A stretch of 64,000 nucleotides of DNA from Acidobacteriota bacterium (lineage in GTDB: Bacteria > Acidobacteriota > CAIWXX01), in contig JBFMAF010000008.1 of assembly GCA_040755995.1 (NCBI GenBank), positions 32,001 through 96,000 of the forward strand, in the 5' to 3' direction. The notes beneath the pieces were generated by a model. It saw nothing but the letters and a program-made list of their open reading frames with translations. It was not told where the DNA came from and searched no databases. Each line of letters begins with the position of its first letter. The first letter of the stretch is position 1. Positions 40,355-59,122 of this stretch are shown here, in pieces. The position numbers and the translations under genes were made by a program.

Positions 40355-40373
40355 CACGCCCACCCCGCCCGAA

Positions 40374-42227: not shown

Positions 42228-42278
42228 CTGGCTACTCCCCGACCTGTCTCCGCCCCGCCGGTGAATCGACTGGCCGAT

Positions 42279-43649
42279 CTACCATGGTCTCCTATCCTGC
42301 TCCCGTTCCGACCAACCTGCGTCATCGAACTGCTTGTGGTAGGGCTCGGCCAACTCCAGCGACTTGCGCCACGGCAGACCGACTCCCTCCATCTGGTCCC
42401 TGAACCAGGCGCGTCGCGAATCGAAGAGCGCCCTCTTGCCGTTCAACAGCGCGTCCTTTACCGGCGCGGCGGACCTCTGCGACTGTATCAGGTAGTTGAT
42501 CAATCCGACGGGGCCGAGGTCACCCACCACCACTGCGCCGATGAGGAGGTCGCGACGGAAGACGAGTTTCTGGTAGATCCGGCCTTCGAACGACTCGCGC
42601 AACCGCACCTCATCGCCCGGCTCCGGCTCGATCACCCCTATCGACATGATCGGGGTGCCGAAAAGCGGCAGGGCGGTCATGCCGATGTAGCCGCCATGTT
42701 CGGTGGAATGCCCGGCCATGTTCAAACCCGCGATGCGCCCCTGCGCGTGCGCGTTGGGCCAGTTCGCGTTCACGAACACGCTGCCACGGGTCACGTCGTG
42801 CGTCTCGGCCACATCACCGGCGGCATACACCCCGGGCACGTTCGTCTCGAAGAAGCTGTTCACCAGTACCCCGACGTCAGTCCTCACGCGCGTGCCGCTC
42901 ACCAGACTCAGATTCGGCCTGACGCCCGTCGCCTTGACGACCACTGAGCATTCGATCTTCTCCCCGTTGTCCAGCAAGACGGCGGCCACACCGTCCTCTC
43001 TGCTCCCCGACACCTCCGCCAAGCGACGTCCTACCAGAACGCGTATGCGATTCTGCTCGAGAATCGCGCGCGCGTGCTCGGATGCAGGGGCGTCAAGTAT
43101 TCGACTGAGAATGTGGGGCAACAGCTCCACGAGCGTGACATCCAGTCCGGCGCCGCGCAGTCCGCAGGCAGCCTGAATCCCCACCAGCCCCGCACCCACG
43201 ACGACGGCCGTGCGGCGGGACGAGCCGCACGCCGCAATGCGAGCGCGGATCGCCTCTGCGTCTCCCCGCCTCCAGAAATCGAAGACCCCGGTGCGATCAG
43301 ACCCCCTGAGCGGCGGGAACGTCTGGACCGAGCCGGTTGCGATGAGGAGCCTGTCGTAGTGCATCGTTTCCCCGTCTGCGAGAACGACCGTCTTCGAGTC
43401 GACGTCGAGCGATTCGGCGCGGACGCCGAGTCGCGGCTCGATCCGCAAGCGTTGATAGAAGTCGGCGGGCCGGTAACGCATTCCGTCGGCCGTCGTTTCG
43501 CCTGCGACGAAGTGCGAAATGAGCGGCCGCGAATAGACGTGATGCGGCTCATCACCGACAACCACGATCTCGCAGCTCCTGTCCACCGCGCGGATGGACT
43601 CTGCCGCGCCGATGCCAGCCGCGCTGTTGCCTACGATCAGATAGCGCAT
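42279..43649 (-). CDS. FAD/NAD(P)-dependent oxidoreductase (AOR flavoprotein partner)
   Basis: VGNSAAG, YSRPL, LLIATGS, VGAGLVG, YAAGDVAE. Confidence 0.9.
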   Translation of the reverse strand: MRYLIVGNSAAGIGAAESIRAVDRSCEIVVVGDEPHHVYSRPLISHFVAGETTADGMRYRPADFYQRLRIEPRLGVRAESLDVDSKTVVLADGETMHYDRLLIATGSVQTFPPLRGSDRTGVFDFWRRGDAEAIRARIAACGSSRRTAVVVGAGLVGIQAACGLRGAGLDVTLVELLPHILSRILDAPASEHARAILEQNRIRVLVGRRLAEVSGSREDGVAAVLLDNGEKIECSVVVKATGVRPNLSLVSGTRVRTDVGVLVNSFFETNVPGVYAAGDVAETHDVTRGSVFVNANWPNAHAQGRIAGLNMAGHSTEHGGYIGMTALPLFGTPIMSIGVIEPEPGDEVRLRESFEGRIYQKLVFRRDLLIGAVVVGDLGPVGLINYLIQSQRSAAPVKDALLNGKRALFDSRRAWFRDQMEGVGLPWRKSLELAEPYHKQFDDAGWSEREQDRRPW

Positions 43650-43719
43650 CGCCGCCTCCACCGGGCCTTCGAAAATCGACGCTGGACGACGCGCCACCGG
43701 GCGTATGGTGCGGGGTCTC

Positions 43720-44460
43720 TCACGAGTGGCTCGGGTGAAATGCCCATATCGTGGCGATACCGGCCAGCATGAGGGCGAACTGCAGAATCGATTCGGCCGG
43801 ACGTTTCTTTCCCCGGCGTCCCGGAATGAGGTCAGCCAGGGCGATGTAGATGAAGCTTGCCGCCGAAAGCGCGAGCACATAGGGCGCCACAGCGAGTATG
43901 GAACGCGTGGCGAGGTAGGCCAGAACCGCACCGACCAGCGTGAACGAGCTGGAGAGACTGTTGTAGAGCATGGCCGAGGCGCGGCGGTAGCCCGAGTCCA
44001 CGAGGATCATGAAGTCACCGACCTCCTGCGGGATCTCGTGCGCGATTACTGCGATGGGTGTGGCGATGCCCAGATCTGTCGACGTGACGAAAGCCATCGT
44101 GATGGCGATTCCATCCACGAAGTTGTGGAACGCGTCTCCCACCAGCACCAGCGCACCTGCCGACGAATGAACGTCGCAATGCGGATCGTGGCAGTGCCTC
44201 CAGACCACCAGCTCCTCGAGGACGAAGAACAGCAGGATGCCGAACAGCACAGTTCGGAGTGTGGCGGGCCCGGAGAGCCGCTCCAGAGCGTATGGGATCA
44301 TGCCGATGAAGGCGGCTCCGAGCAGCGTGCCGGTCGCGTAGCTCACGACGTTCGGGACCAGCCATTGGCTCTTCCCGTCCTTGAATAGCAGCACTGCGCC
44401 CGCTATCAACACCGATCCGACACTCCCGAGCGCACTGAAGAGTATGATCATTCTCAGCAT
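43720..44460 (-). CDS. ZIP family divalent metal transporter
   Basis: HCH loop, GDAFHNFVDG, HEIPQEVGD, FIYIALADL. Confidence 0.92.
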   Translation of the reverse strand: MLRMIILFSALGSVGSVLIAGAVLLFKDGKSQWLVPNVVSYATGTLLGAAFIGMIPYALERLSGPATLRTVLFGILLFFVLEELVVWRHCHDPHCDVHSSAGALVLVGDAFHNFVDGIAITMAFVTSTDLGIATPIAVIAHEIPQEVGDFMILVDSGYRRASAMLYNSLSSSFTLVGAVLAYLATRSILAVAPYVLALSAASFIYIALADLIPGRRGKKRPAESILQFALMLAGIATIWAFHPSHS

Positions 44461-44687
44461 GGGCTCACTCCGAACGATCGGCTCTCCTGCGTGCTCATCC
44501 CCTCGTGGAAGGTGGCCATCTCTTGAAGCGGTCTCGGTGGCACAGCCTCTTTCCCACAACGTGGCCATAGCAGGAAACGCGCCAACCCCAGTCGACCGCG
44601 TGATCTGAGTGCCTTCTCTCGATGAATCTCCGGGTTGCGGTCGTGACCTGGGCGTTGCCGACGCGTGCGGGGTCGCATCGCCGCCAC

Positions 44688-45248
44688 TCACTCGGCAGAT
44701 CGAGTCGCTCCAGTGCGACTTCGCTGGACCTCGACCATTGCACCTGCGAGATACCTTGCGGCTAGACTGACGTAGAGGTCCTTCGCCCAGTGGGTCATTG
44801 GGGCGTGACGCTCGTTCACCTCGCCGGTGACCCTCGCCGGCACGCCCACCGCAATCCTGCGGGGCGGGATCTTCTGGCTGTTCTTGACCAGGGTCATTTC
44901 ACCAACTATGGCGCCCTCTCCCACCTCAGAGAAGTCGCTCACCACCGCGCGCATGCCGATGACGGCACCATCCCTGATCGTGGCGTTGTGGATCATGGCG
45001 CCGTGGCCGACGGTGACCCGCTTGCCGATCCGCGTGCAGTCCTCGGGCCGGGCGTGCACGATGACCCCTTCCTCGACGGCGGTCTCATCCCCGATCTCTA
45101 TGGAACCGTAATCGCCGCGCAAGATAGCGCCGTGCCCGATGTAGCAGCTCTCACCGATCGTCACTCTCCCAATGATCTGCGCAGAGGGGGATACATAGGC
45201 GCTTCCGGCGATGTCAGGGTGGCGTTCCTCGAAAGCGTAGACTGGCAT
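44688..45248 (-). CDS. Gamma-class carbonic anhydrase family protein
   Basis: Hexapeptide repeats, LRGD, VH, TVGHGAMIH, GVPA. Confidence 0.9.
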   Translation of the reverse strand: MPVYAFEERHPDIAGSAYVSPSAQIIGRVTIGESCYIGHGAILRGDYGSIEIGDETAVEEGVIVHARPEDCTRIGKRVTVGHGAMIHNATIRDGAVIGMRAVVSDFSEVGEGAIVGEMTLVKNSQKIPPRRIAVGVPARVTGEVNERHAPMTHWAKDLYVSLAARYLAGAMVEVQRSRTGATRSAE

Positions 45249-45329
45249 TGTTCATCCTTTCCATCAAAGCGGCTCTTTGCATTGGATCAAGTCCAGATGC
45301 GTTTCACATCATACTTCAAACCTCCAGAG

Positions 45330-45482
45330 ATCGGCCCCTCATCGCCACCCTGCCCATCGCCTCATACAGCACGGGAACCACAATCAGGCGCAGGTGGAAG
45401 GCAAAGGGGAACCCGCCGAGGTAGACGACGGCCTGCGGCCTGTGCAACTCGGCGCCGGTAGACCTTGTGAGGGCGAGTGGCA
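45330..45482 (-). pseudogene. Degenerate copy of the 3' end of the RND permease gene (~51615-51772)
   Basis: Encodes PLALTRSTGAELHRPQAVVYLGG...LRLIVVPVLYEAMG, nearly matching the intact gene. Confidence 0.85.
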
Positions 45483-45489
45483 ACGAGCT

Positions 45490-47757
45490 TCAATCGAAGC
45501 TGTATTCCAGCTTGGCGAAGAACGTTCTCATGTAGCGCGGGCCGTAGACGTAGCCGGCGTCTCTGTCCGGTCCCCGGTCCAGATCAGACTGGAATTGATC
45601 GAAAAGGTTGCTCACTCCCGCAGTGAGCCGCACTTTGGCCCTGCCTGAGGGATCTGCCCACAAATCCCTTGCGCCCGTCAGATCAAGGACATAGAAAGAA
45701 GGCGTTTCCTCCAGCCGGCTAGCCTGGATGTATCCGGCGTAGTGCGGGACAAGCATTCTTCCGGTATACTGCAGCCTTCCGGATATGTTCGTTTTTGTCC
45801 TGCTCTCGTAATAGTCGGCAGAAAGGTACCCGTATGTCTCGGGTGTCCTGAAGAATGACCTTTGATTGAAATCAGGTTCAGGATGATCGTACAGCCCCTG
45901 CTCCCAGGTGAATCCTGCTGCGAATCCCAGCTTCTCACCGATCTCGATCCTTGTAGCGATTTCAACTCCGTAGCTCCTTGCAGCGCCGGCGTTTATTCTC
46001 TGGAACACAAGCTCATCGTCTCCGGAGTGCAGAGGCTGGAGTGCAAAGGCATCCCTGAGCCTCGTATAGAACCCCGTTACGGCGACTGATTGAGTCATTG
46101 TCTCTCCCGCTGTCCAGTTGTTCTGGAGACCCGCACTGTAGCTTGTGGAAGACTCCTCTCTGAGCGTTGGATCGTTGATTATGATCGCACCTTGGCCTCC
46201 GACCTGAGTGATATGCAGGTCCTCGTCAAAGACCTTCGGGGCGCAGAATCCGCGGGAGACTGCCGCCCTGAGTCTCCAGCTGTCGCTGAGTGAGATCATC
46301 ACGTTGCCGCGGGGGCTCATGACTGTCTTGTTCAATACATTGGGCCTGTCCAACCGAAGCCCGCCTACAACGGTGACTCGATTGCCCAGAGTGATTTCAT
46401 CCTGAACGAAAACTCCGGTGTTCGTGTACACGTCGTCAATGACTCTGTCATAAGCAAGAGCCTCGTCTTTCAGCCATTCACGATCCAATGCGAGGCCGGC
46501 AACAAGATAGTGTTTCTCAATCTGATGGTGCAGAACCGCCTCGAAATTGACCAGAGGGTTGGTCGACTTTCCATACGCATTCGGATCCATGTTGGAACCA
46601 TAATAGGAATCTCTTCTTGTATAGGCAAAGGCCATGGAAGTTTCGTAGAAGCTTTTGCCCGAAAGGAGCTGTCTCCATCGTGCTCTCCCGCCATATCGCA
46701 GAGTATCGGCTGCCTCTGCGGTCAAGGCCTCATGGGGAGGAAGATCGAGCCTGTCTCCACCTCTGCGGTCCTCGTGAAATCTGTGAATATCAACAGTGAG
46801 CTGGCCCTTGTTCGCCAGCAGATCCTGGAAGAATCGAACGCCGAAGGCTTCAAGCTTCTTGTATCCCATATCCGAGAATCCGTCCCCGTCTCTGTCAATC
46901 GGGGCCACCCGGTCCACCTTTCCGAAGCCGAGTATCCCCGTATCCCCGGACGAATTCACAGCAGAAAACAGGCCGGAGCCAAGACACTCCGGCCTCCCGT
47001 TCTGCCACCCCTGCTGATAACTCATCCGGAACATCGTTTCCTCCGGGTTCTTCCCCACGATGTTAACCACCCCCGCGACAGCTGAAGCTCCGAATAGCGC
47101 GGAGCCCCCACCCTTCACAACCTCGATCTGCTGTATCATCTCCGGTGGAATCTGCTCAAGCCCGTATACGAGCGCAAGAGAGCTCAGCGAAGGACTGCCG
47201 TCAAGAAGCACCTGAGTGTAGCGTCCCTCAAGTCCGTTCAGTCGGATGTGGGTTATGTTGCAGTTCTGGCATGCGTTTTCTACTCTGACTCCGGTTACTG
47301 CCGTGAAAGCGTCTGAGACCGTTCTAACCAGAGGTGAAGCCAGCTCTCTGCTGCTGATGACTTCTGTCCTCACGGGCACATCCGCAAGAACTACCTCCCT
47401 CCTGGTTCCGGTAACCACTATTGCATCAGAAACCGCTTCCTTCTTGGTAAGTTCGATTAGTATCTCCTGAATGCCATCTCCTGCCAGAGACAACGGCGGG
47501 CATTCGCTCAGATAGTACCCTTCCATAAAGGCTTCGAGAGTGTACGTTCCGCCAGGCACTTCTGCAAAGCAGAAGTCCCCGTTTCTATCGGTCGACACAA
47601 CTCTACCTAACGGCTTCAGTATTACATCCGCCGAACAGACAGGACTTCCGTCTTTTCCTGCTGTGACTCGGCCTCTGATCGTCCCTGCGCCGCAGAGGCC
47701 TACGCAGCAGAATACGAGAATCGCGCAAACGAAAAGCTGAACACATTGCCTACTCAT
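45490..47757 (-). CDS. TonB-dependent receptor with N-terminal carboxypeptidase-regulatory-like domain and plug CxxC
   Basis: VVTGTR, ENACQNC, RLNGLEG, IEVVKGGGSALFG, YVYGP. Confidence 0.9.
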   Translation of the reverse strand: MSRQCVQLFVCAILVFCCVGLCGAGTIRGRVTAGKDGSPVCSADVILKPLGRVVSTDRNGDFCFAEVPGGTYTLEAFMEGYYLSECPPLSLAGDGIQEILIELTKKEAVSDAIVVTGTRREVVLADVPVRTEVISSRELASPLVRTVSDAFTAVTGVRVENACQNCNITHIRLNGLEGRYTQVLLDGSPSLSSLALVYGLEQIPPEMIQQIEVVKGGGSALFGASAVAGVVNIVGKNPEETMFRMSYQQGWQNGRPECLGSGLFSAVNSSGDTGILGFGKVDRVAPIDRDGDGFSDMGYKKLEAFGVRFFQDLLANKGQLTVDIHRFHEDRRGGDRLDLPPHEALTAEAADTLRYGGRARWRQLLSGKSFYETSMAFAYTRRDSYYGSNMDPNAYGKSTNPLVNFEAVLHHQIEKHYLVAGLALDREWLKDEALAYDRVIDDVYTNTGVFVQDEITLGNRVTVVGGLRLDRPNVLNKTVMSPRGNVMISLSDSWRLRAAVSRGFCAPKVFDEDLHITQVGGQGAIIINDPTLREESSTSYSAGLQNNWTAGETMTQSVAVTGFYTRLRDAFALQPLHSGDDELVFQRINAGAARSYGVEIATRIEIGEKLGFAAGFTWEQGLYDHPEPDFNQRSFFRTPETYGYLSADYYESRTKTNISGRLQYTGRMLVPHYAGYIQASRLEETPSFYVLDLTGARDLWADPSGRAKVRLTAGVSNLFDQFQSDLDRGPDRDAGYVYGPRYMRTFFAKLEYSFD

Positions 47758-47879
47758 AGTTCTCTCCAGGTCTGATTACGGTATGCAGAATCGGTCACAC
47801 GGTATTGATGAAGCCAACGCGCCCCGATGCGATGGCGCGGTTTGCAGCATGTCAGGACGTCGCGGAGTGGGTCGGCGCC

Positions 47880-48029
47880 TTGGACATCCGAATCGATGTT
47901 GATCCAGGGCCGCCCAAGCGCACCGGCTTGATCAGCCCTCACCAGGCAAGGCTCGTTTTGCTCGCTGCCCGACCGCATTAACGGGTTCGAGCCCGGCGCC
48001 AGCAAGACGCACTCCACGAATGACATCAC
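47880..48029 (-). pseudogene. Degenerate TolC N-terminal remnant
   Basis: SFVECVLLAPGSNPLMRS...QAGALGRPWINIDSDVQ aligns with SLADCVSLALARNPLVRS...QAKALPQPSIDIDSDLQ of 56068..57324. Confidence 0.72.
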
Positions 48030-48100
48030 TGCACCTCCCCACGAACGTCGACGTACGAGAGTGTACTAACTGAACGAAACGAAATGAGCAGAGGGGGGCT

Positions 48101-48373
48101 TCAGGCGAGAGGAGGCGAGCGGGATAGCGGAATAATCAGCCATGCGCGGCGGGGCACAGAGAAGACCACCGGCTGCAGCATTTCCACTACAACCAGCTGG
48201 CACGGAGGACTCAGGTTCACCTGATGAGGCGTTCCGATCGACTGGCCGTAGTTGCATGCCGGACAGTGGTCGTTTGAAGAGATGCTTTCTTCTGTGTGCG
48301 AGAAATTGACGGACGCCAGGACGAACAGGAACAGAGCCAGGAAACCCGCCACAGCCCATCTGTTTTGCCTCAC
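48101..48373 (-). CDS. Leader protein, DUF2946/CruR-like (CPAC, C-terminal RSPP), copy 3
   Basis: Hydrophobic N-terminus, SHTE, CPAC, PLSRSPPLA; two paralogs in window. Confidence 0.75.
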   Translation of the reverse strand: MRQNRWAVAGFLALFLFVLASVNFSHTEESISSNDHCPACNYGQSIGTPHQVNLSPPCQLVVVEMLQPVVFSVPRRAWLIIPLSRSPPLA

Positions 48374-48558
48374 CAGATACACTCCCATCGCCAATCTACG
48401 CCAGAGGTCGGCCGGAATTCAGGATGATACGCGGCATACCGTCGAGCCGCGTTGGGGGCGGAAGTAGGCGGCGCTTGGGCTCGACGCGGAACGTCGTCGC
48501 CCGTCCATGTGGCATCTGCCGCCAGCCAGCCTTCGTGCTGCCAGTGTCCTTGCATCTC

Positions 48559-48589
48559 TATAATGACAGTGACTCTCATTTTCATTATA
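48559..48589. promoter_or_regulatory. Fur-family operator
   Basis: Minus strand TATAATGAAAATGAGAGTCACTGTCATTATA, a palindromic array resembling overlapping Fur boxes. Confidence 0.7.
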
Positions 48590-48611
48590 CAACAACTGCG
48601 AAACCTGTCAA
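48584..48611 (-). promoter_or_regulatory. Sigma-70 promoter
   Basis: TTGACA (48611-48606), 16-nt spacer, TATAAT (48589-48584). Confidence 0.8.
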
Positions 48612-48693
48612 CACGCTACTGGCGAGGCGCGGCCTCAGACTCGCGAAGCATGCATCGTTCTGACGGCTGCGCCTCGCCTCGACAGTGGAAGGC

Positions 48694-50976
48694 CTAGAAA
48701 AGAAGTCTAAGTGTCAGCCGTGTGTTCCGGCCTGCGCTGAGAGCGTATTGCTTATACGTGTCCAGGAAATCCTTGTACGACTTGTTGGCCAGATTGCCGA
48801 TCCAGAGATCGATGCAGAGCACGCTCTTCCCAAGTTCCCGTTTCCCGCCGGCCGCCAGGTCAAAAAGAACGTAGCTTTCCGTATCCAGGGGGAAGGGTTC
48901 GTCTGGGCCAGCGATTGTTCCCCTCCCGGTCCAGGTAGAGCGGAGCTCAACGAAGGGGCTCGACCAACTCCCCACTGCGAAGTCGTGGATCCGAACACTG
49001 AAACCGGCACGGACTGGGGGCGTGAAAGGGAGGCGCTTACCGGTATCGTCGTTATGGGTCTGCAGGGTTTCACCCAGTGCACGCAGGGACAGAAATGGCG
49101 TGGCGTCCATCTCGATCCTGCCCTCCACCCCGCTGACGACAGCGTCGCTTTGGTCAAACGTGCTCACCGGAAGGCCCCCGATCGTCTCGCCGGTCAGCCG
49201 GAGATAGATGTAGTTTGCGAATACAGCGCGATAAACAGCCACCGATCCCCGCACTCGCTCGTGATCGCATCGGAGCGTGAATTCGGTGTTGAGGTTGGTT
49301 TCCTCCTGGAGATTCGGGTTGCCTTTCTCGTAGAGCTGCACCCCGTCGTGCGGTCCGTTGGCGAAGAGCTCGAACTCCGAGGGATTTCGCCAACCCCGGC
49401 TGATGCTGACACCAGTGGAAATGACCCGATTGAAACGATACACGACTCCCGCACCCCCGGTCAACGCCTGATAGGTTTTCTCAAACTTGTCGGGAATGCT
49501 CAGTATGGTGTCCGCCGGCACATCCAGGGTCCGGCGGTCGATGCGGAGCCCCGCGTTGAGGGTCCAGTGATCGAACTTCTCCCTTCGGCCGAAGCCGGCT
49601 TCCTCGAAAACCATGGCTGACCATGTCCTGTTTTCGTAATAGGGCAGTAGCTTGACCGGGCCGAACGTTTCATTGCTTTGGCGGCTATGTTCCAGTCGAA
49701 CGACGCCCCGCGCCAGCGGACCCACTGGATTATGCTGGAAAGATGCCCGGTACAACTGGGTGTCGAGCTCGAGATCCACTTTTGCCCCATGGCTCCGCCC
49801 CAGGGGGAACGCGCGGCGGATGTTCCGGGAAAGATTGGCGTCCAACTGCAGCAGTCCCCACGTCGCAGGCAGGGAGGCAGCCACACCACCAATCTCGTTT
49901 TGGAGGCCCAGACGGAAATTCGGCTGGAGTGGAATGTAGAACCCCAAGTCGTTTTGCCAATGCCGGAAATGCCCTGTGACCATCATGCCTTTCTCGGACT
50001 GATAACCGCCTTCCAGCGAAGCGGATTGCTGATCGTAGTCGGTGTTGGGGAGGTCTCCGGCCGGCGTTCCCATGTTGCCCGTTGCCCGGTGCGTCAGTGA
50101 GGCGCGCCCGGCGAAGCCTGCGCGGCCACCATCGATCTGTGCGTGGAGGATCTTGGCTCCGTTGACACCAGCGTATCCAAGGATACCTTCCCCGCTGAAC
50201 ACCGGCCGATCATCCACCGGGAATGGGAGCGGCGCGGAGACTAGATTGACGACACCACCGATGGCCTGCGTTCCGTACAGCACGCTGGCAGGCCCGCTGA
50301 CGACTTCGATGCGATCGGCCTCGTAGGGTTCGATGTTCGCCATGTGTCGGCGGCTGAACTGGAAATAGTCATGGAAAATACCGTTGCTGAGGACCCGGAT
50401 GCGTTCATTGGTCTGGCCCCTGATCATCGGGACACCACTTGCATCTCCGGTGGATATGTTGCGCACACCCGGAACATCCTTGATCGCCTCCCCGATTGAG
50501 AGTCCTGAACGGGTGCGGACGCTTCCGGCATCGACCGCGTACGTAGTTTGCGCCACAGCCAGACTTTCCGCCTTCCATGGAGCGGCGGTCACGGTAACGG
50601 ATTCGGAAATGACAGGCAACGGCCGGGCGGCCAGCTGAATTTCAGCAGCAGAGGGAACTTCAATCCTGAACTGTTCCGGCACGAACTTCGCACTGGACAG
50701 GGCCAACGTGAACTGCCCCGGAGGGATATCTGCAAAACTGAACCGGCCTTCGGAGTCGGTAAGCGTCGACAAACCCAGCTCGGCCAACTCAACCGTAATG
50801 CCGGCGACCGGGTCCCCCGTACCCGCTCGGACCACGCGACCGAAGACCTCGGAACCGGACTCCTCTGCCAACAGCGTCAATGGTGTGAACACCGAGAGAA
50901 GCGCGGCACCAGTGCAAAAGAAGAGTACAATCGCAATCCTAGCTGTCGATGGATCTCTTGCAAACCTAAGTGACAT
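48694..50976 (-). CDS. TonB-dependent receptor
   Basis: VTVTA, VPGV, PMIRG, IEVVSGPASVLYG, ELFANGPH, terminal Phe; AGGAGG RBS. Confidence 0.9.
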   Translation of the reverse strand: MSLRFARDPSTARIAIVLFFCTGAALLSVFTPLTLLAEESGSEVFGRVVRAGTGDPVAGITVELAELGLSTLTDSEGRFSFADIPPGQFTLALSSAKFVPEQFRIEVPSAAEIQLAARPLPVISESVTVTAAPWKAESLAVAQTTYAVDAGSVRTRSGLSIGEAIKDVPGVRNISTGDASGVPMIRGQTNERIRVLSNGIFHDYFQFSRRHMANIEPYEADRIEVVSGPASVLYGTQAIGGVVNLVSAPLPFPVDDRPVFSGEGILGYAGVNGAKILHAQIDGGRAGFAGRASLTHRATGNMGTPAGDLPNTDYDQQSASLEGGYQSEKGMMVTGHFRHWQNDLGFYIPLQPNFRLGLQNEIGGVAASLPATWGLLQLDANLSRNIRRAFPLGRSHGAKVDLELDTQLYRASFQHNPVGPLARGVVRLEHSRQSNETFGPVKLLPYYENRTWSAMVFEEAGFGRREKFDHWTLNAGLRIDRRTLDVPADTILSIPDKFEKTYQALTGGAGVVYRFNRVISTGVSISRGWRNPSEFELFANGPHDGVQLYEKGNPNLQEETNLNTEFTLRCDHERVRGSVAVYRAVFANYIYLRLTGETIGGLPVSTFDQSDAVVSGVEGRIEMDATPFLSLRALGETLQTHNDDTGKRLPFTPPVRAGFSVRIHDFAVGSWSSPFVELRSTWTGRGTIAGPDEPFPLDTESYVLFDLAAGGKRELGKSVLCIDLWIGNLANKSYKDFLDTYKQYALSAGRNTRLTLRLLF

Positions 50977-51133
50977 GGTTGCCTCCTGTGTCAATCATTC
51001 TGGTGACACAATTAAAGTATCGTCAGTTCTTTCATTATGAAGATGCTCATCCCCCACACTTCTGTACGCCTCCCCTGAAACGGCGGGGTACAAGTATGTT
51101 GGCTAAGCGAAACCGGACGAGCAGGCGGAGGGG

Positions 51134-51406
51134 TCAGGCGGGGGGAGGTGAGCGGGAGATGGGCACGACGACAGCTGCCTGGCGAGGCGGTGGCATCCCG
51201 ATCTGCCCTAGCAGTTCCACCACGTCCAGTTGCCATGGTGGGCTCAGGTCCACATCCTGAGCCGTACCGAGCGACTGGCAATAGATGCAGGCGGGACAGT
51301 CGTCGTTCGCGCAGATGTCCTTTTCTGTGTGCGAGGCATCGACGGAAGCCAGGACGAACAAGAACGCGGCCAGGAAGGACGCAATGGCCCATCTGTTTCG
51401 GCCCAT
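51134..51406 (-). CDS. Leader protein, DUF2946/CruR-like (CPAC, C-terminal RSPP), copy 2
   Basis: Hydrophobic N-terminus, SHTE, CPAC, PISRSPPPA. Confidence 0.75.
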   Translation of the reverse strand: MGRNRWAIASFLAAFLFVLASVDASHTEKDICANDDCPACIYCQSLGTAQDVDLSPPWQLDVVELLGQIGMPPPRQAAVVVPISRSPPPA

Positions 51407-51607
51407 CACGCGCACTCCATTTGAATCAGATTTCGCCCCTTCCTTGGCTGCCTCGAACGGCAGGCGCTTTTCGCAATGGACATGGTGAGGGGAAGAGGTG
51501 ATGAGCTATGCCGGTGCCGTTCAGCTTCACCACATGTCACCGCGTCCACTGCATGACTGAATCACGATACCCTGTGGCTACAGAGTCCATAGCAGCCACC
51601 GCCTCCT

Positions 51608-54600
51608 TCATGCCTCGGGCCCCTTGCGTCTCAACGCCACCTTGCCCATCGCCTCGTACAGCACGGGAACCACGATCAGGCGCAGGAGAATCGCGAAGAG
51701 GAAGCCGCCGATGTAGACGACGGCCAGCGGCCTGTGTAGCTCCGCCCCGGTGGATCTTGTCAAGGCGAGCGGCAGAACGCCCATGATCATTACCACGTCG
51801 GTGAGAAAGATCGGCCTGAACTTTGTCAGCGCCCCCTGCAGCACGGCCTCACGCAGCGCGAGTCCCTGCTTCACGAGGCCGTTGATCTTGGCCACCAGAA
51901 TCACGTCGTTCTGAACACAGATGCCGAAGAGAGCGATCAGGCCTATGGTGGAGGAGACGTTGATGGTCTGTCCTGTCACCCAGAGCGCAAGGATTCCACC
52001 GATCAAGGTCGAGGGGATGTTCAAGACGATCAGCAGCGACTGCCAGATCGATCCCAGCGAGGAGAACAGTATCACGAAGACGATCAGGATCACGATGATC
52101 ATGACGTAGGTGAGGTGCCTCATCGCGCGCTGCTGGCCTTCGAACTGGCCCCCGAACGTGACGAAGTAGCCGGGTGGCAGGAGCACATCCTCGGAGATCC
52201 TCCTCCGCGCATCTTCCACAAAGCTCCCGATGTCCCGCCCGATGACGTTGCACAGGATGATCTTCCGCCGCATGAGGTTTTCGCGGAGGATAGTCTGAGG
52301 CCCCTCGCTCCTGCTGATCGTCGCGAGGTCTGCGAGTGGGATTCGTACTCCGGACGGCGTGTCCACCAGAAGGCTGCGGATGGCGTCCTCGTCGTTGCGA
52401 TACTGATCAGGCAGGCGTATCAACACGGATGTCACCCTGTCCTCTTCGTAGACGTCCGTGACTTCGATCCCGTTCAGCGCGGTCTCGATCAGGTCGGCAA
52501 TCTGGCCGACGGGGATGCCATGCCTGCCGAGCTCCTGCCGCTCCAGCTGGATGACGAGCTGAGGCACGCCGGTGGTCTGCTCGATCTGGAGATCTGCCAC
52601 CCCGTCGATCTCTGCTATCACACCGCGGATCTCCTTGATCTTCTCGGTCAGAACCGCAAGGTTCGGCCCGAAGAGCTTGACGGAGAGCTGGCCCTCGGTT
52701 CCGGTTAGCATCTCGGCGAGCTTGTTGGCGATCGGCTGCTCGAAGATGTAGGCGATGCCCGGCAGCTTGTCCAGCTCGGTTCGCATCGCCTCGATGACCT
52801 CTTCGATGCTCCGTTCCCGGCCCTCCTGGGGCAGGAGCTGGATGTTATAGTGACTGTGGCCGACCGGGTGCAGATGCTCGGATGCCTCGGCCGTGCCCGT
52901 CATTCTCGAAACCGACACCACCTCGGGGAAAGACATGAAAATCGACTCGATCTTGGTCCCCATCTTCACCGATTCCTCGAGCGAAGTCTCCGGCAGCATC
53001 ACGGTGGACGCCATGATGGCACCCTCGTCCAAAGGCGGTACGAACTCCTTGCCGAGGAAGTGGAGTCCGATTCCTGCCACCGCGATGAGCAGCAGGAACG
53101 CCGTGATGATCTTGCCCTTGTGATCGAGCGCTCGAAGCAGAAGTGACCGGTAGGCGGAGGCCAAGCCGACGATCATCGGGTTGGGCCTGTTCTTGAGAGA
53201 GCCCCGGCTCAGGAGAACGGCCGCCAGAATGGGCTGCAGCGTCAGATTCAGAATCATCGCACCGAAAAGCGCCCCGGCCACGGCGAAGGCGGTCGGATGG
53301 AACATCGCGCCCTCGATACCCTGGAGCGTCAGGAGCGGCACAAAGACCAGGATGATGATCAAACTCGCAGAAAAGAGGTAGCTTCCCACCTCCCTGGCCG
53401 CCGCCGAAACCAGTTCGGTGCCGGAGCGTGAGGAGCGGCCGGTGTTCTCCTGGAGTATCCTGACGATGTTCTCGACCATGATGATGGACCCGTTGGCCAT
53501 CTTTCCGATTCCGATGGCGAGACCGCCGATGGACATGACGGTCAACTTGATCCCGAAGAGGTCCATGAGCACCAGCGCGATCAGGATGGAAAAAGGGATC
53601 GTGAGGGATGCGATGAGGGAGCTGCGCACGTTCCACATGAAGAACATCATCACGAGGATGATGAGGATCGCCCCTTCCAGGATCGAAATCTCCAGGTGCT
53701 CAATAGATCTGACGATCAAGATCGATTGGTCATAGAAGGGCTTGATGGTGATGTTCCTGGGCAGGTCCCTGGAGACTTGCGCGATCGCGTTCTTGATGTT
53801 CGCGATGGCGTTGAGGGTGTCCCCGCCATACTGCTTCTCGACGGTGACGTAGACAGCCTCCTTCCCATTGTGCCCCGCCGACTCGCGCCTGAACTTGCTC
53901 CCGATCTTCACCTCCGCCACGTCCTTCACGAAGACGGGCACATTGTCGCGCGACGTGATGAGGGTGTTCTGGATGTGATCGAGGGTCTCCATCCGGCCCA
54001 GCCCCTTGATAAGTATCTCCTGGGACCCCTTCGAGATGATCCCTCCCGAGAAGTTGCGATTGTTGGCCCCGATCGCCTCCCTGACCTCCTCGATCGTTAT
54101 GTCATAGTGCGTGAGCATGTCCGGCTTGAGATAGACCTGGTATTGTTTGATGAACCCGCCGAGATTGATGATGAAGGCCATGCCGGGCACACCCTGCAGC
54201 CGGTAGCGCACCGTCCAGTCGGCCACGGAGCGAAGCTCGAGCGGATCTGCACCTTCCCCGACGACCGCGAACTCGAAGACCTCGCCCATCCGCGACGAGA
54301 CCGGGCCGAGAATCGGCTCGGTCGTTCCAACCGGCAGGCGCCCCGCAATCAGCTCCAACTTGCTCGCGACGATCTGCCGCGCCAGGTAGATGTCCGTGTC
54401 CCAGTCGAATTCGACCGTGACCACCGAATCGCCCGTCGCCGATTCGGACCGCACCCGAGTCACGTGCGGCGCCCCGGACATGAGGCTCTCGAGCGGAAAC
54501 GATATCAACCGCTCGACGTCCTCAGAGGCCATCCCGGGGTTCTCGGTGATGATGGTTACGAGCGGCGCATTGAGGTCAGGGTAGATATCCTTTGGGATTC

Positions 54601-54697
54601 GTATGTAGACAACGACCCCCCAGATGCAGACAAGGAGCAGCAGGAGGACCGTGAGCAGCTTGTGTCTGAGAGAGAAATCGATCAGGCGGCCGATCAT
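51608..54697 (-). CDS. CusA/CzcA-like heavy-metal RND permease
   Basis: 1029 aa; DIYPDL, EFVPPLDEG, GGQFE, GAELHRPLAVVYIGG. Confidence 0.92.
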   Translation of the reverse strand: MIGRLIDFSLRHKLLTVLLLLLVCIWGVVVYIRIPKDIYPDLNAPLVTIITENPGMASEDVERLISFPLESLMSGAPHVTRVRSESATGDSVVTVEFDWDTDIYLARQIVASKLELIAGRLPVGTTEPILGPVSSRMGEVFEFAVVGEGADPLELRSVADWTVRYRLQGVPGMAFIINLGGFIKQYQVYLKPDMLTHYDITIEEVREAIGANNRNFSGGIISKGSQEILIKGLGRMETLDHIQNTLITSRDNVPVFVKDVAEVKIGSKFRRESAGHNGKEAVYVTVEKQYGGDTLNAIANIKNAIAQVSRDLPRNITIKPFYDQSILIVRSIEHLEISILEGAILIILVMMFFMWNVRSSLIASLTIPFSILIALVLMDLFGIKLTVMSIGGLAIGIGKMANGSIIMVENIVRILQENTGRSSRSGTELVSAAAREVGSYLFSASLIIILVFVPLLTLQGIEGAMFHPTAFAVAGALFGAMILNLTLQPILAAVLLSRGSLKNRPNPMIVGLASAYRSLLLRALDHKGKIITAFLLLIAVAGIGLHFLGKEFVPPLDEGAIMASTVMLPETSLEESVKMGTKIESIFMSFPEVVSVSRMTGTAEASEHLHPVGHSHYNIQLLPQEGRERSIEEVIEAMRTELDKLPGIAYIFEQPIANKLAEMLTGTEGQLSVKLFGPNLAVLTEKIKEIRGVIAEIDGVADLQIEQTTGVPQLVIQLERQELGRHGIPVGQIADLIETALNGIEVTDVYEEDRVTSVLIRLPDQYRNDEDAIRSLLVDTPSGVRIPLADLATISRSEGPQTILRENLMRRKIILCNVIGRDIGSFVEDARRRISEDVLLPPGYFVTFGGQFEGQQRAMRHLTYVMIIVILIVFVILFSSLGSIWQSLLIVLNIPSTLIGGILALWVTGQTINVSSTIGLIALFGICVQNDVILVAKINGLVKQGLALREAVLQGALTKFRPIFLTDVVMIMGVLPLALTRSTGAELHRPLAVVYIGGFLFAILLRLIVVPVLYEAMGKVALRRKGPEA

Positions 54698-54712
54698 TCG
54701 CTCTTCCCCGCC

Positions 54713-56068
54713 TCAGTGAACATGGGCCTGTTTCAGCTCCTCATCCAGGAGCTTGCTCTTGAGCTGGTAGCTGCCGGCGGTCACGACCTTCTCTCCCGGC
54801 TCGATCCCGTCGAGGATCTCGTAGAAGCCGTTCTCCCTGCAGCCGACAGCTACGGCCCTCGGCTCGAACCCTCCGTCGACACTCAGAAAGACCATCTTCT
54901 CGCCACGGTCGTCCAGCACAGCCTCCACCGGCAGCGCCAGAACCTCTGTCGGCTGGTCAAGGTAGATCGTAACGTCGGCGAACATCCCGGCCTTCAGCTG
55001 CTGGCCTCTGTTGTCGACCTGAGTGCGCATGGTGATGGTCCGCGTGTCCTCCTTCAGGACGTCGCCGACGTACGTCACGCGGCCCTCGAATCTCTCTGCC
55101 GGATACGCAGGCACCGAAACCTGGACCTCCTGCCCCACTCGGATTCTCGACACATCTCTCTCGTAGATCTCCGCATCGATCCAGAGAACGGTCGGGTCCA
55201 TGATGACGAAGATCTCCGTGGTCTGGTCCACCATGCCGCCCAGAATAGCCTTGGTGTCGATGACCTTGCCGCTCAACGGAGAGTGCAGGGTGATCACGGC
55301 ATTGATCTGGTGGCTCTTGTCCATCTCCAAAACTTGTGCCTCGGTGAAGCCCAGCACATGGAGCTTCTTCTCCGCTGCATTCAACGTAGCCTCCGCCGCC
55401 TTGAATGAGGCCTCGCTCTGCAACACGTCCTTCTCGGCACCCACGCCGCGATTGAACAGCAGGCGCTCGCGCTCGAGGCTCCGATTCGCCAGCTCGTGGT
55501 CCGCTCTCGCCTTGTAGAACTCGGACCTGGCGTTGCCAACCTCCTCGCTCTCGAGCGTCACCAGCTCCTGTCCCGCCCTCACCCAATCGCCGAGGGACAC
55601 GTGGATCTCCGAAACCCTGGCAGAGAAAGCGTAGCTGACGATGGCCTTCTTCTTCTGCGGAATGAGGACCTTCCCCATCGCCTTGAGCTGCGAGCGCATC
55701 GGCCGCCGCCCGACCTCGGCGGTCTTGATCTCGACTGCCCCTTGCTCAGCCTCGGAAAGCTCCACCAGCGGCACCGCATCGTGCTGCCATCCACGGCCCC
55801 ATCGCCGGCTATGGCGGTGAGCGGCGTCACGGAGCGCGCCGGCGGCGTTGTTCAATGCCTGTGTCTGCCCGGACACGGGTTGGACTGTCTCCTTCTCGGA
55901 GGACGCGGCCTGCCCGGTCCGCGCGACCCCGTTCGTTGTTCTCGTACATCCAGGAGCAGCCGCACACGTGGCCAGCACGGCCAGGATGTGAACCACACGC
56001 GGGACCTGATGCAAGGCGTTGCGGTCCGAGCGGGATATCATGGATTTGAAACCAGAATTCCTATTCAT
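54713..56068 (-). CDS. RND periplasmic adaptor (CzcB/CusB family)
   Basis: GDWVRAGQEL, SPLSGKV, TRTITMR, LKAGMFA, GEKVVTAG. Confidence 0.9.
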   Translation of the reverse strand: MNRNSGFKSMISRSDRNALHQVPRVVHILAVLATCAAAPGCTRTTNGVARTGQAASSEKETVQPVSGQTQALNNAAGALRDAAHRHSRRWGRGWQHDAVPLVELSEAEQGAVEIKTAEVGRRPMRSQLKAMGKVLIPQKKKAIVSYAFSARVSEIHVSLGDWVRAGQELVTLESEEVGNARSEFYKARADHELANRSLERERLLFNRGVGAEKDVLQSEASFKAAEATLNAAEKKLHVLGFTEAQVLEMDKSHQINAVITLHSPLSGKVIDTKAILGGMVDQTTEIFVIMDPTVLWIDAEIYERDVSRIRVGQEVQVSVPAYPAERFEGRVTYVGDVLKEDTRTITMRTQVDNRGQQLKAGMFADVTIYLDQPTEVLALPVEAVLDDRGEKMVFLSVDGGFEPRAVAVGCRENGFYEILDGIEPGEKVVTAGSYQLKSKLLDEELKQAHVH

Positions 56069-57324
56069 TAATCATCTCCTACTTGTGGCTCGCCAACCGC
56101 CCTCTCCAGCGCAGCCAGCGCCACCGAATACTCGGAACGGGAGTCCGCGTAGGACTTGCGTGTTTCGATCAGCGTCCGCCGGGACTCGATCAAGTCAATG
56201 CCTGCCGCGCCGCCGTGAAGGTAGCTGAACAGCAGCATGTCATACGCCTCCTCGGCCTGCGACAGCATTTCCTCCTCGAAGAGCGCTATCTGCTCGGCGG
56301 CGGACGCGGCGCTCCGATACGCATCCTCCACCTCCAGAGAGATCAGGTTCAGCGTGTGCTCCGCTTCGCGCCTCGCCGCCTCAAGGTTCGCCTCCGCCTC
56401 GCGGACCTCACCTCTCTTCGGCTGCCAGAAGAACAGCGGCACGGGGAACGAGATCGCGAAGTCCCACGTCGACTCCTCTCCCGCGATCCGGTGGCGAGAC
56501 AGCCCCACATCGAAATCGGGCAGATAGCTCAGATACCCCTGCTTGCGCCGGAGCGTTTCCTTTTCTACGGAGGCCTGCGCTCGCCGCGCCTCCGGCCGAG
56601 ACGCAGAGGCTCTCTGCCTGAGCTCTTCGACGGGTGGAATCTCTGCCCTCGGCTTGAACTCCCCGTCAATCTCCAGAGGATCGTCGGTACCTCTGGCCAG
56701 CAAGTAGTTGAGGCGGGCCTTCGCGAGCCTGATGTCGCGCATGGCAGCTTGAGCGGTGTTGGCTGCCTTTGACGCTTCCACCCGCGCCCGAAGGACCTCC
56801 ACTCTGGGCGCATCCCCGGCCTCGAACTTCACCCTCGTCTTGTCGAGAAAATCGTTGGCAAGATCGCGGTCCTCCTCGCTGTGACGCAGCTTCTCCATGG
56901 CGAGGAGAAGCCCGTAGAAGGCCTCCTTGATCTCGTATGTGATCTGCAATCTCCACAGGTCAAGATCGGCGAGTGCCTCCTGGGATTCTCGAACGGCTAT
57001 CCCGCCACGGGTTGCGCGTTTCCCCGGAAACTCGAATGTCTGGGAGATACCGAGATAGGACTCTCCTGAGTGGCCAAGCTGGAAAGGGCCGGGCTGGAGA
57101 TCCGAATCGATGTCGATCGACGGCTGTGGCAGCGCCTTCGCCTGTTGAATCCTCGCCAACGATGCCCGGTACATCTCCCCGGCCGATCGGACCAGCGGAT
57201 TCCTTGCGAGCGCCAGCGAGACGCAATCCGCGAGGGACAACCGCTGAGGCGTGCCCTCGCCATGAAGAACCGCCGCCGGTACGACTTGGGCCAATAATAG
57301 TAGACAAACAGCTACCCGCTGCAC
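56068..57324 (-). CDS. TolC/CzcC family outer membrane protein
   Basis: Signal peptide, ALARNP, YLPDF, LERAVG; AGGAGG before GTG. Confidence 0.9.
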   Translation of the reverse strand: MQRVAVCLLLLAQVVPAAVLHGEGTPQRLSLADCVSLALARNPLVRSAGEMYRASLARIQQAKALPQPSIDIDSDLQPGPFQLGHSGESYLGISQTFEFPGKRATRGGIAVRESQEALADLDLWRLQITYEIKEAFYGLLLAMEKLRHSEEDRDLANDFLDKTRVKFEAGDAPRVEVLRARVEASKAANTAQAAMRDIRLAKARLNYLLARGTDDPLEIDGEFKPRAEIPPVEELRQRASASRPEARRAQASVEKETLRRKQGYLSYLPDFDVGLSRHRIAGEESTWDFAISFPVPLFFWQPKRGEVREAEANLEAARREAEHTLNLISLEVEDAYRSAASAAEQIALFEEEMLSQAEEAYDMLLFSYLHGGAAGIDLIESRRTLIETRKSYADSRSEYSVALAALERAVGEPQVGDD

Positions 57325-57403
57325 TTCTATACACCTCCTGGAAAAGCGTGATGAACGAGATGTAACTGTCTCTGGTGACCCGATCTACGGGCGAAAGGAG
57401 GCT

Positions 57404-57685
57404 TCAGAAAGTGGGAGGCGAGCGGGAGAGCGGAGCGAACAGAACGGCCTGACAGTGCCAGCTAACCTCGACGGGCTCCAGCTGTTCGACCACAGCCAGT
57501 CGACAGGCCGGTATGATGTCAGCGTGCTGGGCTGTTGCCAGTGACTGGCCGTAGACTCCAGCAGGGCACTGGTCGTTGTCATTGGAGCTGATGTACTCCT
57601 CGGTGTGAGACAGGTTGACGCAGGCCAGAACGAAAACGAAGACGGCCAACGTGGGCCAATTCAACCACCTCGTTCGTCTCGTCAT
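57404..57685 (-). CDS. Leader protein, DUF2946/CruR-like (CPAG, C-terminal RSPP), copy 1
   Basis: Hydrophobic N-terminus, SHTE, CPAG, PLSRSPPTF; 79 bp upstream of tolC. Confidence 0.72.
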   Translation of the reverse strand: MTRRTRWLNWPTLAVFVFVLACVNLSHTEEYISSNDNDQCPAGVYGQSLATAQHADIIPACRLAVVEQLEPVEVSWHCQAVLFAPLSRSPPTF

Positions 57686-57784
57686 GCCTACTCCGGTAAC
57701 TACTCTACCCAACATCCGGCCAGGCCGTCAACGGAATTCTAGACTGTTGCAAGATGCTACACCTACTGCTATGCTTTGCCGCTG

Positions 57785-59122
57785 ATGGAGAAGCGGCTCG
57801 ACGCACGCCATTTCCCGCTGGTGCTCGACTTCGTTGAGCAGGGCATATTCACAGTGGATGAAAAGGGATGCATAACCTCGTTCAACCGGGCGGCGAAGGC
57901 CATAACCGGCTATTCGGAGGAAGACGTGCTGGGTCGGGAATGCTCCTCGGTGTTCAGGACGGAGCTATGCGACACGATCTGCCCGCTGCGGCGCAGCATC
58001 GCCTCCGGCGAGTACATCCGGAACCGCGAGGTGCGGATACACGCCAAGGACGGGCGGCGGATTCCGATCTCGATCAGCACGGCGCCTCTTCTTACCTCGT
58101 GGGGTACACTGCTGGGCGGGGTCGAGGTCTTCACCGATCTCTCGCACATCGCGGATCTGCAGCGGAAGCTCGATGGGCAGTACCAGTTCGAGGACATCGT
58201 CAGCCGCAATCCCGAGATGCACAAGATCTTCAAGATGCTCCCCCTCGTCGCTGAGAGCACCAGCACAATCCTCATCACGGGTGCCAGCGGCACCGGCAAG
58301 GAGCTCGTGGCGAAGGCGATCCACCATCATGGTCCCCGCAGCAAGCGCCCTTTTGTCGCTGTCAACTGCGCGGCGATACCGGAGACGCTTCTCGAATCAG
58401 AGCTCTTCGGCTACCGGCGCGGCGCGTTCACCGACGCAAAGCGCGACAGGGCGGGGAGAATCGCACAAGCCGAGGGCGGAACGCTGTTCGTCGACGAGGT
58501 GGGCGACCTGCCCAAACCCCTGCAGGTGAAGCTCCTCAGGTTCTTGCAGGACAAGACGTACGAACCACTCGGGTCCAACGTGGCCCAGCGCGCGAATGTG
58601 AGAGTGATCGCCGCGACGCATCGAGACTTGGAGGCGATGATGCGGGAAGGGCTTTTCCGAAAGGACCTGTACTTCCGTCTGAATATCCTGCAGATCGCGC
58701 TGCCGCCGCTCTCCAGGCGTCCGGAGGACATCCCGCTGCTCGCCCGCCATTTCGTCCAACGTTTCCGCCAGGCCACCGGCAAGGTCATCGAGGGGATCTC
58801 GCCGGAGGCGCTTGCCGCGCTGGTGCGTTACCCATTCCCAGGCAACGTGCGCGAACTGGAGAATCTCATCGAGCGCGCCTTCATCCTGTGCGAGAGGCCG
58901 GTGGTCGACCTGCGTGACCTGCCGCCGCATGTCGCGGCGGCGCTGAGCCGGGGCGCCGGGCCGGAGGCCGTAGATGAACACGGCGGGAGCCTGAATCGTG
59001 TAGAGATCGAGGCAATACAGCAGGCACTGAAAAGGCACGCAGGCAATCGCACACGCGCCGCGCGAGATCTCGGCATTCATCGCAGCACGCTCATCCGCAA
59101 GATCCATCGTTACCGGCTATGA
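57785..59122 (+). CDS. PAS-domain sigma-54 activator, OrpR-like
   Basis: PAS with C-x8-C-x3-C, GASGTGKE, ESELFG, GAFTDA, FPGNVREL, Fis-type HTH. Confidence 0.9.
   Translation: MEKRLDARHFPLVLDFVEQGIFTVDEKGCITSFNRAAKAITGYSEEDVLGRECSSVFRTELCDTICPLRRSIASGEYIRNREVRIHAKDGRRIPISISTAPLLTSWGTLLGGVEVFTDLSHIADLQRKLDGQYQFEDIVSRNPEMHKIFKMLPLVAESTSTILITGASGTGKELVAKAIHHHGPRSKRPFVAVNCAAIPETLLESELFGYRRGAFTDAKRDRAGRIAQAEGGTLFVDEVGDLPKPLQVKLLRFLQDKTYEPLGSNVAQRANVRVIAATHRDLEAMMREGLFRKDLYFRLNILQIALPPLSRRPEDIPLLARHFVQRFRQATGKVIEGISPEALAALVRYPFPGNVRELENLIERAFILCERPVVDLRDLPPHVAAALSRGAGPEAVDEHGGSLNRVEIEAIQQALKRHAGNRTRAARDLGIHRSTLIRKIHRYRL

Follow-up and report, generated by a model that had tools for sequence, protein, structure and literature searches.

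The closest described systems are leader peptides that arrest the ribosome translating them and so control the gene that follows. CruR of Bordetella pertussis (Bp2923) is the first gene before a TonB receptor; it carries an export signal, a CxxC motif and, two or three residues from its end, an Arg-x-Pro-Pro motif (RxPP). Its C90 and R139 are 49 positions apart, with 45 residues between the motifs (PMC9426467), and arrest at its RAPP has been toeprinted in vitro (PMC12992588). CutF of Rhodobacter capsulatus is described as having an anti-Shine-Dalgarno (anti-SD) stem and copper-induced stalling (10.1101/2025.02.05.636593), and a survey of 5,334 CutF-like proteins reports OEP/RND genes as their commonest neighbours and TonB genes as the next (10.1101/2022.11.11.516240). 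Here we analyse a 64,000-nucleotide stretch of an Acidobacteriota genome (contig JBFMAF010000008.1; the window), in which three small sibling open reading frames (ORFs), L1, L2 and L3, precede a tolC-RND operon and two TonB-dependent receptor genes. With a probability of about 0.7, we read them as leaders of the CruR/CutF (DUF2946-like) kind, which would act in cis through a metal-responsive ribosome arrest.

The window leaders share with CruR the place in front of a TonB receptor (L2 and L3), the export signal, the CxxC motif (L2 and L3 only), the position of RxPP and an excess of C over G (a C>G bubble) at the leader 3′ end. Their Cys-to-Arg spacing is 48 as against 49, with 44 residues between the motifs as against 45, within a tolerance of 1–2 residues. 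They differ in having RSPP rather than RAPP, in being shorter (90 against 145 residues), in the shorter intergenic regions of their family (median 66 nt before TolC and 98 before TonB genes, against 162), in the predicted anti-SD sequence within the arrest codons and in neighbours that suggest Zn/Fe-type over Cu-type genes. With CutF they have in common a signal, a C-terminal Pro-Pro motif with a Cys site about 45 residues away from it and, by prediction, a stem over the next SD, and all three show the length, Pro-Pro and hydrophobic N-terminus used as criteria in the CutF survey. CutF, by contrast, is described as having CxxxC and heading a multicopper oxidase, and metal prolongs its pause. 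ApdA, ApdP and SecM resemble the leaders in their Arg-x-Pro-Pro near the C-terminus, a localisation signal and a TonB-related class, but are presented as monitors of protein localisation without a metal site; the upstream-ORF survey reported with them covers RAPP and RGPP (PMC12992588).

Earlier publications already cover the leader principle, the occurrence of RND and TonB genes as neighbours and the permissiveness of RSPP for arrest. The novelty of the original prediction is reduced to that extent, CutF-like leaders before OEP/RND and TonB genes having been catalogued (10.1101/2022.11.11.516240) and RSPP reported as a partly permissive, under-represented arrest motif (PMC12992588). The word 'Acidobacteria' is absent from the main text of the CutF survey, which has 29 clusters, and the supplementary member lists of the CruR and CutF papers may already contain the Acidobacteriota RSPP family.

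Three leader ORFs and their wider family

All three ORFs lie on the minus strand (Table 1) at the positions given in the original prediction, which had rightly described their hydrophobic N-terminus, SHTE, Cys motif and RSPP. Each is preceded by GGAG 5–8 nt 5′ of its start and contains a 17-residue hydrophobic stretch (mean Kyte-Doolittle 1.9–2.4) followed by the common SHTE. The Cys motif reads D-x-C-P-A-C in L2 and L3 and D-Q-C-P-A-G in L1, where the second Cys is gone, and the C-termini consist of P-[LI]-S-R-S-P-P, two codons and TGA. The Cys-to-Arg distance is 48 in each, as had been claimed; because the leaders are 49–60% identical, with no alignment gap from Cys to Arg, this equality largely reflects common descent, and the stronger evidence for a fixed spacing is the wider family. 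Between the paralogues dN/dS is 0.19–0.40, and structure prediction returns a single helix (residues 3–33) with a low-confidence tail (pLDDT 65, pTM 0.32).

Chance occurrence of this layout was assessed in the 307,211 six-frame stop-to-stop segments of the host genome. There are 167 segments of at least 55 residues that end in R[ASGD]PP plus 0–5 residues; a Cys motif lies 38–56 residues upstream in 11, and four of these have a hydrophobic N-terminus, judged by reading. The four are L1–L3 and a more distant, His-rich leader on contig C23 (L005:6882-7214, minus strand), which has CxxC and RAPP at spacing 48, scores 20.3 bits against DUF2946 and is followed by a porin gene and by genes resembling ZnuA and ZnuB. 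Close by on the downstream side are an integrase-like gene and small phage-like ORFs. No further genomic copies were found with a profile of L1–L3, and NCBIfam has no match for any of them. The leader profile has no match in the two genomes of the host's taxonomic family, so the cassette is patchy or acquired.

Iterated searches gathered a family of at least 432 proteins at E ≤ 0.01, most strongly represented in Aminicenantes, with 174 representatives at 50% identity. Record titles among the matches listed are mostly Candidatus Aminicenantes or 'uncultured Eubacteriales', the latter a doubtful label because those contigs encode TonB receptors and TolC; in the host phylum, 23 of 401 genomes match the leader profile, the host included and a few weakly. 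Motifs were counted in 268 distinct proteins (the best 120 of the 432 and the best 150 of the 174). Of these, 261 carry [RK]xPP no more than 12 residues from the C-terminal end, and 254 of the 261 have CxxC, the exceptions being L1 and six other proteins. The spacing of 48 recurs in 233 of the 254 CxxC-bearing proteins, and the tail after the motif is two residues long in 233 of 261. The motif is RSPP in 188, RAPP in 50, RGPP in 12, RPPP in 4, KSPP in 4 and RDPP in 3, so that S, A, G, P and D account for nearly all residues at its second position, close to the permissive set A, G, S, D and P reported for ApdA/ApdP (PMC12992588). In 3,216 long host ORFs, a crude gene set, RSPP and RAPP occur at 0.35 and 0.34 of expectation, while RLPP, RVPP and ASPP are near 1.

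Neighbouring genes were tabulated at 169 loci (148 plus 21 from the phylum search) with 199 leader ORFs, 198 of them bearing the motif; 132 leaders remained at <90% identity. The next gene encodes TolC in 70 of these, a TonB receptor in 57 and a porin in 2, and the remaining three lie at contig ends. The association with metal-type transporters proposed from the window alone is thereby borne out at 129 of 132 loci. Within flanks of up to 7 kb, two leaders occur in 30 of the 169 loci and three in none; among the matches listed, the two-leader order is usually leader-TonB-leader-tolC-membrane fusion protein (MFP)-RND. One database protein (P0130), probably a deletion or assembly artefact, joins the first 77 leader residues to RND-like segments. 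Spacing, motif spectrum, neighbourhood, profile similarity and RSPP depletion all argue, at the level of sequence, for the DUF2946/CruR-like leader reading.

RNA read-out and layout of the locus

In the mechanism that we propose, the N-terminal hydrophobic segment would bring the nascent chain to the Sec translocon and the ribosome would pause with the RSPP prolines at its P and A sites, as the CruR toeprints and the ApdA/ApdP mutants suggest. The His/CxxC site, some 47–50 residues away from the P site, would then be at the periplasmic exit, and metal bound there would alter the duration of the pause. The original prediction had this site clearing the exit tunnel; it would indeed be clear of the tunnel, but about 50 residues, as argued for CutF, are long enough to cross the membrane, and the periplasmic mouth of the translocon is the more probable place for the Cys site. 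The paused ribosome would cover the CCUCC-type sequence of the Ser-Pro-Pro codons and the C-rich tract, both of which are computed features, and covering them would free the next SD, block Rho loading and turn downstream genes on. At L1 the freed site would be the tolC SD. At L2 and L3 it would be a leftover tolC start (see below), from which L3 would reach the second receptor gene (TBDT2) by translational coupling and L2 the first (TBDT1) by averting polarity.

Codon usage and folding are consistent with this scheme. The first Pro codon is CCT in 107 of 132 leaders, against 32% in neighbouring genes, and L1–L3 all use CCT-CCY though CCG is the commonest Pro codon nearby. The Ser-Pro-Pro codons yield a CCUCC-like run complementary to GGAGG; in the predicted folds of all three cassettes this run pairs with the SD and start that follow. 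Opening the ribosome-binding site (RBS) would cost 16–17.5 kcal/mol in free RNA and 9–12.6 with a stalled ribosome, 5–7 less (the L2 figure comes from a segment shifted by one base); 6, 0 and 0 of 200 synonymous recodings of the L1–L3 cassettes reach the real opening cost. In relatives, with loci having long spacers or no SD left out, the real sequence pairs with the SD above recoded ones at 47 of 67 TolC and 50 of 55 TonB loci. The excess of C over G in the best 60 nt is 19, 24 and 19 for the three cassettes, where about 0.3% of genome segments reach 18 and 0.02% reach 24, although Pro/Ser codons impose part of the C-richness at leader ends. Over the 35 nt that follow the stop, C outnumbers G in 117 of 122 leaders but at only 56 of 146 control stops, and the host genome encodes Rho. 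Since the RSPP codons are predicted to pair with the SD and C-rich sequence surrounds the stop, a stalled ribosome is expected to turn on the genes that follow; masking of the SD and loading of Rho would both make the pause the ON state and are inseparable from sequence.

The genes named in the original prediction are present: OEP, HlyD_D23 and ACR_tran families follow L1, and L2 and L3 are each followed by a TonB receptor. L1 and tolC are separated by 79 nt, with a C-rich tract around the L1 stop. The promoter candidate before L1 is weak alone because seven such sites were found against 3.8 expected. No intrinsic terminators were found between any leader stop and the next start, and there is one weak terminator candidate, inside L3. 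The match of the membrane fusion protein to TIGR00999 is under its cut-off. The nearest solved relative of TBDT1 is ZnuD (E 2e-24), though the ZnuD model gives 124 bits, far under its cut-off of 950; most receptors that follow leaders in Aminicenantes share the type of TBDT2, at about 40% identity.

Table 1. Features of the leader locus, in window coordinates.
Feature	Position	Strand	Remarks
Sigma-70-like promoter candidate before L1	57702-57731	-	9/12 consensus matches
Leader L1	57404-57685	-	93 residues; hydrophobic N-terminus, CPAG, RSPP + 2 residues
Predicted stem	57324-57435	-	RSPP codons, tolC SD (57339-57334) and GTG start; from folding
TolC-family outer membrane factor	56068-57324	-	418 residues; PF02321 (OEP), E 4e-51
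CzcB/CusB-type membrane fusion protein	54713-56068	-	451 residues; PF16576 (HlyD_D23)
CusA/CzcA-family RND (ACR_tran)	51608-54697	-	1029 residues; TIGR00914
Leader L2	51134-51406	-	90 residues; CPAC, RSPP + 2 residues
Kept copy of tolC RBS and GTG (51059)	51012-51075	-	After L2
TonB-dependent receptor 1 (TBDT1)	48694-50994	-	Likely ATG at 50976
Perfect sigma-70 consensus promoter before L3	48584-48611	-	12/12, 16-nt spacer
9-1-9 palindrome, Fur-family-box-like	48562-48580		Directly 3′ of the -10
Leader L3	48101-48373	-	90 residues, GTG start; CPAC, RSPP + 2 residues
tolC relic with kept SD	47754-48040	-	91-codon open frame; homology 47880-48026
TonB-dependent receptor 2 (TBDT2)	45490-47757	-	CxNC motif in plug region
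RND C-terminus relic	45316-45483	-	80% identical to residues 975-1028

The three copies come from duplication of one leader-tolC(-MFP-RND) unit in this lineage. DNA homology between the L1 and L2 cassettes (62% over 374 nt) continues past the leader stop to the tolC SD and GTG; after L2 that GTG opens a 15-codon mini-ORF ending 36 nt before the TBDT1 ATG. The tolC relic before the second receptor, noticed in the original prediction, is confirmed, with 49% identity across 49 residues (E 9e-12). Its signal peptide is deleted, the window's own tolC matches it best, by a narrow margin, among 112 TolC ORFs, and the stop of its open frame overlaps the TBDT2 start (ATGA). A copy of the last 54 RND codons directly follows TBDT2 as an open 55-codon frame, 6 nt after the stop, with dN/dS 0.20 relative to the intact RND. 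With a tolC 5′ relic before it and an RND 3′ relic after it, TBDT2 lies inside a decayed second operon copy. The proposed reuse of one leader type before uptake and RND genes therefore holds, in this genome through a copied leader-tolC cassette.

Directly ahead of the SD of TBDT1 lies a perfect 7-nt inverted repeat with a 10-nt spacer (50987-51010), which might form a hairpin in the RNA or bind a protein. Its use as a second hairpin relay for TBDT1 was rejected as unsupported, the opening cost showing no change with a ribosome at the mini-ORF stop (5.5 against 6.0, energies computed with an index off by one). A PAS/sigma-54 activator gene (57776-59122, plus strand) diverges 90 nt from the L1 start. 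Downstream of TBDT2 (39893-45248, minus strand) lie a gamma carbonic anhydrase-like gene, a ZIP transporter, a flavin oxidoreductase, an aldehyde ferredoxin oxidoreductase and a ferredoxin-like ORF, all metal-related.

The palindrome at the L3 promoter resembles the Fur-family consensus. Its pattern has four sites in the genome (in the window and at C31:71495, C32:70399 and C32:180790) and none in a reversed control, and the genome has two Fur-family genes. A near copy overlaps a promoter-like site before feoB on contig C31; the feoB-associated palindrome also precedes an ORF that by eye resembles a DtxR-type regulator, and two palindrome copies precede small outer-membrane-like proteins. The promoter and box together suggest induction of the L3 unit, and of that unit only, by iron or similar starvation. 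In relatives, promoter-like hexamers lie close to the leader starts (by eye). The ZnuD-like receptor, the downstream ZIP gene and the ZnuAB-linked fourth leader incline us slightly towards a Zn/Fe-type divalent metal rather than Cu.

Weighing the alternatives

Several observations count against the arrest-leader reading or narrow it. The DUF2946 (PF11162) gathering cut-off of 23.7 bits is reached by none of the window leaders (L3 14 bits; L1 and L2 no match); 14 of 121 relatives match the model at E ≤ 1, the best at 0.007, and an unrelated zinc-ribbon model matches more of them (18). Profile comparison does show remote similarity. Four leaders picked with the Pfam model in the host phylum, three of them over the cut-off, have spacings of 47, 48, 48 and 48 and precede proteins resembling TonB receptors at their N-termini. 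The family profile aligns to these four at a probability of 89% (hhalign, E 2e-6), and the ESM Atlas gives 0.95 to a cluster with 54% DUF2946. The family is probably of the functional kind of CruR and CutF and their distant kin rather than a formal part of PF11162. Other points concern the motif: RSPP is reported as only partly permissive in ApdA and RxPP alone as insufficient (PMC12992588), L1 lacks the second Cys, and in the long host ORFs RDPP is not depleted while KSPP is (0.53, small counts). The spacing was counted in proteins gathered by profile searches, which favour matches without gaps, and related genomes in the family counts are not independent. On the RNA side, the SD is predicted to stay mostly paired even with a stalled ribosome (unpaired fraction 0.08–0.38 for the window cassettes; medians 0.21 and 0.20 in relatives). 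A partner-swap test gives 0.65 against a control of 0.60 for TolC and 0.81 against 0.66 for TonB loci; with TolC barely above control, the CCT bias may serve Rho or slow decoding rather than pairing. The receptor RBSs are predicted to be fairly open (5.5 and 3.6 kcal/mol), so that control by L2 and L3 requires an indirect step. A Fur-like box before relatives' leaders is not above shuffles.

An improbable alternative keeps the arrest leaders but gives at least L1 the polarity of CutF: metal would prolong the pause and turn the RND on for detoxification, the TonB leaders would act oppositely, and small sequence differences would set the sign. It draws on the CutF stem and copper-induced stalling (10.1101/2025.02.05.636593), on a DUF2946 gene reported at the head of the zinc-induced czrCBA operon of Caulobacter (PMC4176598), on four leaders that precede RNDs keeping an acidic residue in transmembrane helix 4 (TM4) and on the missing second Cys of L1. 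It also fits the grouping of leaders by the gene that follows, for which the tree needs 16 changes where shuffled labels need 46.9; TonB-class leaders more often have PPP at -27 to -25 and Gly at -21, TolC-class ones more often PQL and Glu. No alignment column, however, fully separates the two classes, and the same tree, a quick search over 86 columns with long branches, forces at least four switches between TolC and TonB partners by its starred branches, makes the two leaders of one locus sisters and unites L1–L3 in one clade (support 99) whatever gene follows. On balance we give a modest preference to the CruR polarity, in which metal ends the pause and the genes go off; the hints are the Fur-like box shared with feoB, the ZnuD-like receptor, the porin/ZnuAB leader and the His-rich RND.

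It is very unlikely that the leaders monitor secretion or periplasmic thiol-redox state, by SecM/ApdP-like pulling or a CxxC disulfide, instead of metal. Their downstream products are all exported envelope proteins, a disulfide has been proposed as an alternative folding force for CutF (10.1101/2022.11.11.516240), and seven of the 261 proteins, L1 among them, lack an intact CxxC; yet the classified neighbours are all metal-type transporters, with neither sec nor dsb genes among them, the two leader classes retain His at -59 in 96% and 89% of their members, and CxxC is followed by His, Gln or Asn. We give hardly any credence to the idea that only L1 regulates, with L2 and L3 as passengers of duplication, or that the products are small periplasmic metal-binding proteins acting in trans. 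L2 and L3 do face relic starts rather than receptor starts, the receptor RBSs look open, TBDT2 has its own promoter and Fur-like box, and a search of relatives' TonB-class intergenic regions gave no tolC relic. Both leaders nevertheless retain CxxC, spacing, RSPP, SD and stem, as well as the low dN/dS noted above, which may predate decay because the RND relic gives a similar value; and a predicted single helix with a low-confidence tail is unlike a stable chaperone.

An altered RND pump and the significance of the leaders

The RND downstream of L1 scores 860 bits against TIGR00914 (cut-off 701), and its fold is nearest those of CusA and ZneA (AlphaFold model, pLDDT 70). The proton relay is described as D405-E939-K984 in CusA, with D405 essential (PMC8092243), and as D407, D408 and K940 in AcrB (PMC8277102). 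Alignments to ZneA and CusA place Lys399 in TM4 of the window protein and Asn402 at CusA D405; overall it has Asn at D405/D407, Gly at D408, Gln at E939/K940 and Ile at K984, together with Asp931 in TM10, Asp967 in TM11 and a four-His periplasmic segment (608–616). Among the best 120 of 733 homologues, Lys399, Asn402 and Glu409 are invariant in 120 of 120, Gln929-Asn930-Asp931 and Thr966-Asp967 in the 118 that cover them, and three of the periplasmic His residues throughout, the fourth being kept in 118 of 120. The subfamily comprises at least several hundred proteins, 120 of which were checked. A second subgroup (52–54% identity) keeps Lys/Asn, mostly with Glu at 967. We infer that the TM4 Asp/TM11 Lys of CusA may be replaced by TM4 Lys/TM11 Asp (or Glu), about one helical turn nearer the periplasm. 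Plasmids contain no close relative of the RND TM segment (best 47%), and the titles and abstracts of open-access literature yielded no Lys/Asn TM4 RND variant.

A search with the RND only added nine further genomes, seven with Lys/Asn and two with Asp. Upstream DNA is available for five Lys/Asn loci, four of which have a different leader (H-x-CPFC...RAPP, Cys-to-Arg 44; L222, L223, L224 and L227), and these genomes were not listed by the RSPP-leader profile search of the phylum; the two Asp-type loci have no leader. The link between leader and Lys/Asn RND is not exclusive because of the four other leaders before RNDs with an acidic TM4 residue. Since interchangeable leaders of one polarity would gate both this RND and TonB uptake receptors, the pump might belong to a rewired, leader-gated subfamily that is on in metal starvation and serves acquisition rather than detoxification, with a portable leader cassette; we regard this as an unlikely, speculative extension. 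If true, the RND would move metal inward or export a metal carrier, and the leader with its RBS would be a portable switch for any gene.

The arrest-leader reading adds an unannotated RSPP family of Acidobacteriota to the CruR/CutF type of metal sensing by nascent peptides. The locus is a natural experiment, with three sibling leaders, one of them lacking a Cys, before one RND and two receptors, and this trio could reveal what decides whether metal ends the pause, as for CruR, or prolongs it, as for CutF. The conserved loss of the proton-relay Asp in the RND is a separate lead, which could outweigh the leaders. The relics, for their part, show how such switches acquire new targets.

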